DNA from: Klebsiella phage KP182
Strand: one strand, 5' to 3'
Sequence record: OM337876.1
DNA: 64,000 bases
Position 1 is the stretch's first letter. Each line of letters opens with the position of its first letter. This document shows positions 59,270-62,453 of this stretch, in pieces. The notes beneath the pieces were generated by a model. That model did not search any database. It saw nothing but the letters and a program-made list of their open reading frames with translations, and had not been told where the DNA came from. The translations under genes and the position numbers were made by a program.

Positions 59270-59277
59270 TATAAATA
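59270..59277 (+). promoter_or_regulatory. T4 late promoter TATAAATA for gene 13
   Basis: Exact TATAAATA about 21 nt upstream of the gp13 ATG. Confidence 0.7.
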
Positions 59278-60242: not shown

Positions 60243-61019
60243 ATGACTACATTTAATTCTAGGCTCTTCGCTAAACTCGAAGATTATCGAGGATATAATA
60301 AAACTAATGAGACTGAAATTCTCAATCCTTATGTGAATTTTTACAATCATAGAAATAGTCAAACGTTAGCAGATGCTTTATCGGCTGAGGCTATTCAAAT
60401 GAGAGGAATTGAGTTTTATTTCCTTCCTCGTGAATATAACAATCCTGATTTGCTTTTTGGAGAAGACCCATCAAGTAAATTCACCAAAGCTTGGAAATTT
60501 GCTGCTTATTTAGATTCATTTGAAGGATATTCTGGCGATAACACATTCTTTAGTAAATTTGGTATGATGGTTAATGATGAAGTCAATTTGACTATTAATC
60601 CCAACCTATTCAAGCATCAAACTAATAATTCTGAACCAAAAGCCGGTGACCTAATTTATTTTCCTATGGATAACTCATTATTCGAAATTAACTGGGTTCA
60701 GCCATACGATCCATTTTATCAGTTAGGTCAAAATGTTCAACGCAAGATTACTGCACAAAAATACATTTATTCTGGTGAGCAGCTTCAGCCAGAATTGCAA
60801 CGTAATGAAGGCATTAATATTCCTGAATTTTCTGAGCTTGATTTAGAACCAATCAAAAATATAGATGCTCTTGCTGATATTTCTGATGTGCAGTACGCAG
60901 AAAGCGACGCAATCAATAAAGAAGCTGCTGAATACGTTCATCCGTATTATGTTAATAACGGAAGAGGACTTGAGTCTCCTCCTAAAGCAGATTCGTTTGA
61001 TGACGGATTTTTCGAATAA
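60243..61019 (+). CDS. 14: neck protein gp14
   Basis: 258-aa ORF against T4 gp14 at 256 aa. Confidence 0.85.
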
Positions 61020-61028
61020 ATAATCTAT

Positions 61029-61616
61029 ATGATATATGATAAAGTAGGAATATGGCTTGGTGATTTAGCGGATGAATATCTGTCGGTGGTCACCAAGCCA
61101 CCTAAGACTAAATACACCGAAAAGCATCATATTCTTCCTAAATCACTATTTCCTGAATATGAAACAGTTCCAGAGAATATTGTTTCTCTTGATATTTTAG
61201 ATCATTTAAATGCTCATGAAATACTAGCGAAAACAAAAGACCCTAAAATGATTATGGCTTTTTGGATTATGTTTAGTAGTTCAAAACGTAGGAAATTAGA
61301 TTTATCTAATGATGAATTGAAGATAAAATATGAAAAAGCTCGCATAGAAATGAAGCGAGTTAAATCCGAATGGGGAAAATCTAGAGTAGGTAAATTAAAT
61401 CCATTCTTTGGCAAACACCATGGAGAATATGCAAAAAGACGTGCTAGTGAAACCCATAAAGGAAAGAAACTTAGCAAAGAGCATGCCAAGTCATTTGGTC
61501 AAGCTCAAAAAGGTGTTCCAAAAAGAAAAGTGGAATGCCCTCACTGCCATCAAATGATTCCTTATAATTTAATTAATAGATGGCATAATGATAACTGTAA
61601 ATTTAAAGAAGATTAA
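61029..61616 (+). CDS. HNH homing endonuclease inserted between genes 14 and 15
   Basis: 195-aa ORF with TEKHHILPKSLF, HLNAHE and a NUMOD3-like GKHHGEYAKRRASETHKGKKLSKEH, plus a C-terminal Zn ribbon CPHCHQ...C. Confidence 0.75.
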   Translation: MIYDKVGIWLGDLADEYLSVVTKPPKTKYTEKHHILPKSLFPEYETVPENIVSLDILDHLNAHEILAKTKDPKMIMAFWIMFSSSKRRKLDLSNDELKIKYEKARIEMKRVKSEWGKSRVGKLNPFFGKHHGEYAKRRASETHKGKKLSKEHAKSFGQAQKGVPKRKVECPHCHQMIPYNLINRWHNDNCKFKED

Positions 61617-61628
61617 TGGGGGTGGTTT

Positions 61629-62449
61629 ATTTTTGGACATTGGTATAATTCGTCCTTACGCCGATACATTGTATTGCTTGGAGATTTATTTTCTCATGTA
61701 CAAATTGCTCGTTGGCGTGAAGACACTGGACTAAAATATATTAAAGTACCTATCACTTATGCTTCAAAGGAAAAGTTCCTTTCTCAGCTTGGAAAATGGA
61801 CTGCTATTCAGTCTACCGAGAATAAAGCAAAAATAGAAACTGTTTTGCCAAGAATGAATTTGCACTTGGTTGATATGCAATACAACGCGATGTATAAAAC
61901 ATCACAACTAAATAGAACCAAGTCATATAAAACTCCTTCAAAAATTACATCTCAATATAATCCTACTCCTATTAAGATGATTTTTGAATTAGGAATTTAT
62001 ACACGCAATCAAGATGATATGTATCAAATCATCGAGCAAATCGTTCCTTATTTTCAGCCTCACTTCAATACGACCATAACTGAGCTTTACGACAAAGACA
62101 CAAGTTTTAATCGTGATGTTAGAATTGTATTACAGTCATTTTCTCAGGATGAAGCTGTTGATGGAGACAATATCACTCGTCGTAGATTAGAATGGTCATT
62201 AATGTTTGAAGTCAATGGCTGGCTGTATCCGCCTGTAGCTGAAATTGACGGCGAAATTAGAACCATTTATTTAGATTTCTTCGCTAACAGCAAAGAGCTA
62301 ACTCCAGAAGGAAACTTTGAATCAGTAGATAGCGAAGTTACTCCACGAGATGTTCAGCAAGAAGACTGGGATGGCTCTAGTAAACAAACTTATTCTCACG
62401 ATATTCCTATTCCGGTAAATCCGGAGGCTCCTGGACCGAGAGGTGAAAA

Positions 62450-62453
<4 letters not shown>
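61629..62453 (+). CDS. 15: tail sheath stabilizer/completion protein gp15 (non-canonical start)
   Basis: The conserved N-terminus [13 protein letters not shown] (T4 MFGYFYNSSFRRY) is in frame but starts at ATT 61629, behind SD GGGGGTGG. The first canonical-like start is TTG 61674. Confidence 0.8.

Follow-up and report, generated by a model that had tools for sequence, protein, structure and literature searches.

A conserved and probable AUU start codon, apparently brought in with a mobile endonuclease cassette, in gene 15 of T4-like phages

AUU starts and cassettes that alter translation

Two genes of Escherichia coli are naturally initiated at AUU, infC (IF3) and pcnB (PMC5499595; PMC3592434). 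In both, AUU stands at the start behind a Shine-Dalgarno (SD) sequence, is weak and expression-limiting, and is conserved without reversion to AUG (PMC5499595; PMC3592434). Gene 15 of a T4-like phage, the subject of this analysis, resembles them. It was studied in a stretch of 64,000 nucleotides from Klebsiella phage KP182 (record OM337876.1; the whole stretch is called the window), where a gene for a free-standing homing endonuclease separates genes 14 and 15 and the conserved N-terminus of the gene 15 product (gp15) begins at ATT. Unlike infC and pcnB, gene 15 is a phage virion gene and not a host regulatory one, no IF3 autoregulatory logic is evident, and its AUU is tied to a mobile endonuclease cassette, relatives without the cassette using ATG or TTG. 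AUU-initiated genes are already known, and it is the link to a mobile element that appears unusual; the comparisons described below give good support to a conserved non-canonical AUU start for this essential structural gene, introduced together with a mobile endonuclease cassette. Enterobacterial genes with a natural AUU start are extremely rare, and gene 15 would be a phage model in which near-cognate initiation can readily be studied in the course of infection.

Two other systems offer partial parallels. In Enterococcus faecalis ebpA, a conserved N-terminal extension is reported to begin at a rare ATT start, and the annotation had been placed at a downstream canonical codon (PMC4447247), as for gene 15. 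The organism and the gene differ, and the ebpA start is reported to have been tested by experiment (PMC4447247), whereas that of gene 15 is deduced from sequence. The cassette recalls T4 mobA/gene 60, where a Mob-type HNH endonuclease likewise brings along a sequence that obliges an essential neighbour to be translated in a non-standard way, with its protein preserved. The 50-nt translational bypass sequence of that system is also reported to shield its carrier from self-nicking (bioRxiv 10.1101/2022.08.31.505936, citing Bonocora 2011). In contrast to mobA/gene 60, the gene 15 junction combines a non-canonical start codon with a replacement SD and involves no ribosome hopping, gene 15 is not split, and protection by ATT is suggested only by analogy. 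Our literature search found no paper on the gp15 start or on ATT/AUU starts in T4-like phages, but it did not include key subscription papers, in which an earlier mention is possible.

ATT occupies the position of the gp15 start codon

The window is 99.8-100% identical to Klebsiella phage vB_KpnM_KpV477 (Jiaodavirus, T4-like). After the endonuclease TAA (61614-61616) the frame runs on as TGG GGG TGG TTT ATT TTT GGA CAT TGG TAT AAT. The endonuclease open reading frame (ORF) and gp15 share this frame, and the in-frame stop lies four codons (TGG GGG TGG TTT), or 12 nt, 5' of ATT 61629. Inspection of the ORFs of the window reveals no ATG, GTG or TTG in the gp15 frame between the endonuclease TAA and TTG 61674. 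A sequence-only reading of this DNA had described the frame as open from the HNH endonuclease stop and as lacking a canonical start at the conserved N-terminus, and this description is accurate. The same reading held that both ATG positions of T4 gene 15 are replaced, by ATT and by TTG 61674. The first replacement stands, with ATT at the position of the initial methionine (M1); the second does not, because TTG 61674 aligns with T4 L16, while T4 M17 aligns with CTT 61677. An out-of-frame ATG that overlaps the TAA (61616-61618) had not been mentioned.

When read from ATT, gp15 aligns with T4 gp15 from residue 1 (MFGYFYNSSFRRYATLMGDLF). It matches Pfam PF16724 over residues 4-257 (E = 1.1e-102) and the solved T4 gp15 (PDB 3j2m/4hud) over residues 1-271 (E = 1.4e-111), and its first 15 residues belong both to the PF16724 domain and to the solved T4 protein. 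T4 gp15 is a hexamer, present in six copies per virion, and its R11 forms a salt bridge to gp14 E227 (PMC12929629).

The homology of ATT to a start codon is seen directly in relatives that lack the gene 14/15 endonuclease, a comparison that had been suggested from the sequence alone and that finds ATG at the position of ATT. The endonuclease-free Jiaodaviruses UTI-K1 and metagenome contig L165 read ...TTCGAATAAATAA AATAAAGATGGGACCTTTGGGTCCCTTAGGAGAAATC ATG TTT GGA CAT TGG... across the site, with GGAGAAATC upstream of the gp15 ATG; the window has GGTTT before ATT TTT GGA CAT TGG. Window and empty site have a common left flank up to TTCGAATAAATAA and a common right flank from TTTGGACAT. About 40 nt of resident spacer, comprising a hairpin, the SD and ATG, are swapped in the window for the endonuclease gene and TGGGGGTGGTTTATT. 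If ATT is read as Met, L165 gp15 equals window gp15 over all 274 residues; the two gp15 ORFs differ at 22 nucleotides, 21 of them synonymous and the remaining one the change from ATG to ATT. More broadly, ATT 61629 is aligned with ATG, TTG or GTG at gp15 M1 in more than 60 loci.

At M1, close relatives without the endonuclease carry ATG in three genera or groups: Jiaodavirus (UTI-K1, L165), Tegunavirus (L099, the counterpart of endonuclease-bearing phiR1-RT) and the F48/HMGUkp2 group (L084 and L086). The endonuclease-bearing relatives have ATT, which supports the earlier suggestion that the endonuclease insertion created this situation. The possibility that L099 and L100 carry another type of endonuclease, with an 'HNDN...' tail, was rejected: this tail is the gp14 C-terminus, and both are endonuclease-free relatives of phiR1-RT with ATG.

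The initiation region upstream of ATT

The SD sequence GGGGGTGG spans 4-11 nt 5' of the A of ATT, with a spacer of 3 nt (the sequence-only reading had put it one nucleotide further away, at 5-12 nt), and the distance from the A of ATT to the SD G that corresponds to the middle G of AAGGAGG is 10 nt. This spacing is typical of E. coli genes and is found likewise in the RB43 and Acinetobacter junctions. Among all 17-mers of the window, taken from both strands, the SD duplex at ATT (-9.7 kcal/mol) ranks in the top 0.37% by energy, and the SDs of gene 13 (-8.3 kcal/mol), gene 14 (-6.0 kcal/mol) and gene 16 (-7.1 kcal/mol) are all weaker. By the same anti-SD duplex energy, TTG 61674 (+0.3 kcal/mol) and ATG 61616 (-1.8 kcal/mol) are essentially without an SD. 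Grouped by start class, gp15 loci have mean SD energies of -9.27 kcal/mol for ATT (n=6), -7.46 kcal/mol for ATG (n=41) and -8.81 kcal/mol for TTG (n=9). No significant RNA structure that could hide or present the start was found over the site (z = +0.46).

The SD and ATT are contained in a 31-nt block (TTAAAGAAGATTAATGGGGGTGGTTTATTTT) that is identical in seven phages of several genera, all with the type-B junction described below. This block is the longest invariant run in an alignment of ~1.8 kb covering gene 14, the endonuclease gene and gene 15, the runner-up being 19 nt long. It takes in synonymous sites of the last endonuclease codons and is invariant while the endonuclease body has diverged by 16-26% between genera.

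In E. coli reporters, starts at AUU or UUG give 6-8 times less expression than AUG, and A/U-rich enhancers raise AUU-started translation ~3-fold (PMC3592434). In vitro, AUU reaches 48-74% of the AUG level when the initiation region is optimised, no codon is more sensitive to IF3, and AUA is equal to or better than AUU (PMC5499595). A weak AUU start, comparable to UUG, is evidently acceptable for gp15, because each virion holds only six copies of the protein and TTG stands at M1 in nine endonuclease-free sequence contexts.

Conservation and selection around codon 1

Codon 1 is ATT in 20/20 sequences from three deeply diverged clades, always behind a strong and well-spaced SD, while every other degenerate codon between 2 and 18 varies synonymously in these sequences. 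Ile14, for example, is encoded by ATC in 8, ATT in 5 and ATA in 2 of them, and Leu10 and Ser8 use six and five codons, respectively. Judged by this pattern of codon usage, codon 1 therefore behaves unlike an ordinary Ile codon. Purifying selection acts on the codons that follow. The minimum synonymous:non-synonymous counts in codons 2-16 are 22:2, 13:1 and 10:3 in the three ATT clades, and the ratio of non-synonymous to synonymous substitution rates (dN/dS) within these clades is 0.02-0.09 in codons 2-16 versus 0.11-0.41 in codons 17-60. No stops or indels occur in codons 2-16 among the 20 sequences. Of the three options that the sequence-only reading had left standing (initiation at ATT, initiation at TTG, and coupling or reinitiation from the endonuclease gene), the first is strongly favoured by this constancy of ATT at M1 behind an SD and by the selection on codons 2-16.

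ATT accompanies the endonuclease cassette

The ORF that separates genes 14 and 15 encodes 195 residues with a match to PHROG 655 'homing endonuclease' (E = 1.7e-41), and the KpV477 annotation calls it a Mob-like HNH endonuclease; its matches to Pfam HNH (E = 0.17) and NUMOD3 (E = 0.015) are both below the curated cut-offs. No SD is detectable at its ATG (61029-61031, +0.1 kcal/mol), which fits the generally poor translation signals of the free-standing homing endonucleases of T4. At the gene 14/15 site the endonuclease is present in 12 close phages and in the RB43 and Acinetobacter groups, and it is absent from most relatives, including most Jiaodaviruses. It is 74-84% identical between genera, versus 68-76% for the flanks, and appears from these identities and this distribution to have moved horizontally.

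The 12 close endonuclease-bearing phages have two types of junction. Type A comprises the Dhakaviruses KIT01, ABTNLsp5 and EcoM_005 together with Enterobacter phage MY742 (junction GAGGTGAGTAATGTTCGG). Here gp15 has a normal start, an in-frame ATG that overlaps the stop of the endonuclease gene (GAGTAATGTTCGG); the endonuclease is homologous (63-82% amino acid identity), and the gp15 SD lies in or adjoins the endonuclease 3' end. Type B comprises the window, KpV477, AShe-2020a, Merci, HMGUkp2, Biddle_MM4, F48, LC53 and phiR1-RT, which cover Jiaodavirus, Marfavirus, Winklervirus, Tegunavirus and unclassified phages. The window thus resembles type A in having a homologous endonuclease at the same site and the gp15 SD at the endonuclease 3' end. 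In contrast to type A, it has 13 additional nucleotides, as do the other type-B junctions (AAAGAAGATTAATGGGGGTGGTTTATTTT(T/C)GG), which throw TAATG out of frame and leave ATT at M1. The UAAUG stop-start overlap is in frame with gp15 in type A only, the ATG at 61616 in the window being 13 nt 5' of ATT and out of frame.

In the RB43 group and in Acinetobacter T4-like phages, endonucleases of ~50% identity occupy the same site and the conserved gp15 N-terminus begins once more at ATT behind an SD. Three different junction sequences, those of type B, the RB43 group and the Acinetobacter phages, therefore carry an SD and ATT at M1 (Table 1). The relation between the endonuclease and gp15 frames varies between these clades, ZZ1 and Acj9 being unlike the window.

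A survey of the M1 codon in a sample of 80 IMG/VR gp15 loci gives mostly ATG, with TTG in 11, GTG in 1 and ATT in 6, and an SD before every one. The 11 TTG loci represent 9 distinct endonuclease-free sequence contexts. When distinct sequence contexts are counted, ATT is present in 4/5 endonuclease-bearing loci versus 2/52 endonuclease-free ones (Fisher p = 2e-4). Loci L114 and L123 have the ATT junction without any endonuclease gene; they keep the last 15-20 nt of the type-B and the Acinetobacter junction, respectively, and look like deletion footprints or resistant alleles. The SD-ATT junction is also intact beside disrupted endonucleases, in W16 (a 12-nt deletion and a premature stop; L078 1349-1363) and in Henu6 (a frameshift; L163 ~612). 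The junction is in this sense independent of the endonuclease ORF.

Three pattern scans complete the survey. A scan of IMG/VR for the type-B junction with the start triplet left free gave 60 matches, all of them unrelated chance matches. A permissive pattern scanned against metagenomes gave no gp15 among the matches listed (at least 120 loci). The pattern ATT TTY GGN NNN TGG TAY AAY in IMG/VR gave, among the matches listed, the six known ATT loci and one false positive.

As a separate observation, the gp15 start codon is labile in evolution, with ATG, TTG, GTG and ATT at one position. TTG at M1 is found in several lineages that lack the endonuclease (L088-L094, L110-L111, L126 and L129-L130; position 1501), generally with strong SDs such as GGAGGT.

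Proposed mode of initiation

We consider it likely that gene 15 is translated from AUU 61629 by SD-directed initiation, which would yield the full-length gp15 of 274 residues. On the late polycistronic mRNA, the strong SD GGGGGUGG (61618-61625) would be the binding site of the 30S subunit, probably assisted by the A/U-rich upstream stretch and by the absence of local RNA structure. SD pairing would set AUU in the P site, where initiator tRNA would read it as formylmethionine. Some reinitiation by ribosomes that have just finished the endonuclease, whose stop lies 12 nt upstream, may contribute a minor share of gp15, without being required. The SD-AUU unit would form the 3' end of a mobile cassette made of the Mob-like HNH gene and a replacement initiation region, and the cassette would have substituted the ~40 nt of resident gene 14-15 spacer with its hairpin, SD and ATG, leaving gp15 with the same sequence as in relatives that lack the endonuclease. 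In that case, the cassette of a free-standing homing endonuclease would be able to replace the entire initiation region of a downstream host gene, including its start codon.

The comparisons establish the homology of ATT to a start codon, the strength and spacing of the SD, the conservation, the selection on codons 2-16 and the independence from the endonuclease ORF; actual initiation at AUU, its efficiency and the reason for the retention of ATT are inferred, and several points weigh against the proposal. Initiation at AUU is drawn from sequence comparison only. Because the endonuclease is transferred horizontally, the between-genus divergence in codons 2-16 may partly predate ATT, a caveat that the within-clade counts lessen but do not remove. 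AUA equals or exceeds AUU in vitro, so that efficiency alone leaves the constant ATT (never ATA or ATC) unexplained. Finally, the out-of-frame ATG 13 nt upstream and the T-run of type-B phages are likewise invariant.

Candidate reasons for ATT retention are dosage control combined with a very strong SD, regulation sensitive to IF3, and, by analogy, immunity of the cassette to its own endonuclease. In its fuller form the last candidate makes ATT a functional part of the element: the endonuclease would recognise the conserved 5' end of gene 15 including ATG, and a replacement initiation region would, through ATT and the changed sequence before it, make the carrier immune to self-cleavage with gp15 unchanged. 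We regard this as a tentative and rather unlikely proposal. If true, it would be the start-codon analogue of the mobA/gene 60 bypass cassette, with replacement of the initiation region as part of the self-immunity of the element; L114 and L123 would be resistant alleles or footprints left under endonuclease pressure, and ATT in 20/20 sequences across three clades, without reversion to ATG, ATA or ATC, would be explained. Since type-A genomes combine ATG with the endonuclease, some members of the endonuclease family can arguably coexist with a start other than ATT.

Alternative readings of the junction

The alternative that survives best, though an improbable one, has ribosomes start at ATG 61616, coupled to endonuclease termination at TAATG, and then reach the gp15 frame by a +1 shift on UUU_U (61631-61634). 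The invariant 31-nt block holds the ATG together with the G-run and TTTT(T/C), the T/C polymorphism at 61634 still permits tRNA-Phe re-pairing, L114 retains the ATG at -13, and the equivalent ATG is the genuine gp15 start in type-A relatives. However, neither this ATG (-1.8 kcal/mol) nor the endonuclease ORF itself has an SD, and the A site holds UGG in the 0 frame (CGG in two phages), neither a stop nor a clearly slow codon. Between the SD-like element and the slip codon there are 5-8 nt, whereas the stimulator of prfB is spaced by ~3 nt. A programmed +1 frameshift like that of prfB calls for a slippery codon in the P site, then a stop or a slow codon, and an SD-like stimulator upstream; the gp15 junction does not show this combination. 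Moreover, RB43-type junctions have no start codon in the frame concerned, and in Acinetobacter phages this frame is that of the endonuclease; ATT and the SD are conserved in both.

A start at the annotated TTG 61674 (or at Met17 in other genera) is less probable again. It would give a truncated gp15 of 259 residues and make the 15 upstream codons an untranslated relic. TTG 61674 is the sole canonical in-frame start and is used in all KpV477 and Merci database annotations, and most other genera have ATG at residue 17. Nevertheless, Jiaodaviruses have Leu17 with or without the endonuclease, the TTG has no SD (+0.3 kcal/mol), and the supposed relic has a dN/dS of 0.02-0.09 with no stops or indels in 20 sequences. 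The Pfam domain begins at residue 4, and truncation would remove residues of the conserved fold including R11, the gp14 contact in the T4 virion. The TTG option of the sequence-only reading, which had itself noted the loss of conserved residues, is accordingly disfavoured.

Very little probability, marginally less than for the TTG start, is left for a dependence on endonuclease translation, either as readthrough of the TAA into an endonuclease-gp15 fusion or as strict reinitiation. The common frame and the short distance between stop and ATT in the window would suit both, and E. coli ribosomes reinitiate efficiently when the next start is within ~20 nt of the stop (PMC3592434). But the frames differ in ZZ1 and Acj9, and the endonuclease gene has a poor initiation region. 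The junction is kept without any endonuclease in L114 and L123 and beside prematurely terminated ones in W16 and Henu6; because ATT is retained even in genomes whose endonuclease is missing or disrupted, coupling, readthrough and frameshifting from it are not needed, and the coupling envisaged by the sequence-only reading loses its force. TAA is, in addition, the least leaky stop codon.

A sequencing artefact, in which a miscalled G5 or T5 homopolymer masks an in-frame TAATG start, is scarcely credible: although KpV477 was sequenced by Ion Torrent at 31x and deletion of one G or T would bring ATG 61616 into frame, the same junction is present in AShe-2020a, Merci, HMGUkp2, Biddle_MM4, F48, LC53 and phiR1-RT (with KpV477, eight independent genomes), F48 and phiR1-RT carry T4C and not T5, a variant of the junction occurs in L114, and two further clades have ATT at M1 with no ATG to restore. 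Transcriptional slippage was rejected on general knowledge, the G5 and T5 runs being too short and two phages having T4C.

Annotation of gp15

The gp15 gene is mis-annotated in every endonuclease-bearing record examined, among them KpV477, Merci, HMGUkp2, Biddle_MM4, F48, LC53, phiR1-RT, RB43, Dev_CS701, Miller, KLB25, KKP_3664, ZZ1, Acj9, W16 and Henu6. The annotated starts range from 15-16 codons downstream (~28 in RB43) up to an upstream TTG inside the endonuclease gene, and for the RB43-group and Acinetobacter gp15 annotators have chosen at least four different starts that look wrong. As judged from the alignments, the correct gp15 protein is the full-length one.

Several records show further irregularities. 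Several Jiaodavirus records (P0001 cluster; L004 431-461) call a 284-residue gp15 from an ATG inside the intergenic hairpin, 10 codons 5' of the SD-preceded ATG, which is probably an over-extended annotation. ZZ1 has a one-base frameshift near gp15 codon 27 (L076 ~1650-1670; CAAAGTAATG versus CAAGTTATG in Acj9), owing to which its annotated gp15 begins in another frame. Its close relative W16 has an uninterrupted gp15 ORF of 293 residues, and the frameshift is therefore probably a sequencing error. The endonuclease ORF of Acj9 has CAA in place of the TAA of its relatives and extends ~20 codons over the gp15 start in the other frame (L077 1546-1606).

Organization of the locus

The features of the locus are collected in Table 1. 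A single T4-type late promoter motif (TATAAATA, at 59270) is found near genes 13-15, and genes 13 and 14, the endonuclease gene and gene 15 are therefore probably co-transcribed late as one transcript.

Table 1. Features of the gene 13-15 region of the window, and junction sequences of related phages (aa, amino acids)
Feature	Position	Strand	Remarks
T4-type late promoter motif TATAAATA	59270..59277	+	Upstream of gene 13; sole such motif near genes 13-15
Gene 14 (neck protein)	60243..61019	+	ORF; annotated as neck protein/Hc2 in KpV477
Mob-like HNH homing endonuclease gene, free-standing, 195 aa	61029..61616	+	PHROG 655; between genes 14 and 15
A/U-rich stretch 5' of the SD, putative S1/enhancer element	61598..61617	+	Includes the stop TAA 61614-61616
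31-nt invariant block TTAAAGAAGATTAATGGGGGTGGTTTATTTT, proposed cassette-borne gp15 translation initiation region	61603..61633	+	Seven-phage alignment
Out-of-frame ATG with a 10-codon ORF, overlapping the endonuclease stop as TAATG	61616..61648	+	SD energy -1.8 kcal/mol
Shine-Dalgarno sequence GGGGGTGG	61618..61625	+	Anti-SD duplex -9.7 kcal/mol
Gene 15 (tail terminator / sheath stabiliser)	61629..62453	+	274 aa if ATT is the start
ATT, proposed gene 15 initiation codon	61629..61631	+	Aligned with ATG of endonuclease-free relatives
TTG (Leu16), GenBank/RefSeq start	61674..61676	+	Would give 259 aa; SD energy +0.3 kcal/mol
RB43 junction			CAGGGGGATTAGAAA ATT TTC GGA
ZZ1 junction			AAGGAGAATTAAA ATT TTT GGT
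Acj9 junction			AAGGAGAATCAAA ATT TTC GGT

The ATG of the short ORF at 61616 is invariant in type-B phages, and the length and sequence of this ORF vary among relatives. One possibility is that it diverts ribosomes terminating on the endonuclease gene.

The resident spacer of endonuclease-free T4-like phages of many genera contains a GC-rich hairpin with covarying stems directly 5' of the gp15 SD (L080-L111, ~5-30 nt before position 1501), for example GGGACCtttGGGTCCC, GGGGCttcgGCCCC, GCCCGGgaaaCCGGGC and GGCGCAtggTGCGCC. The type-B cassette has deleted this hairpin, the region being replaced in the window by 61020-61628. RB43-type genomes retain a hairpin (CTGGACnnGTCCAG; CTGCTtaaaCAGCAG in L135) within the 3' coding tail of the endonuclease.

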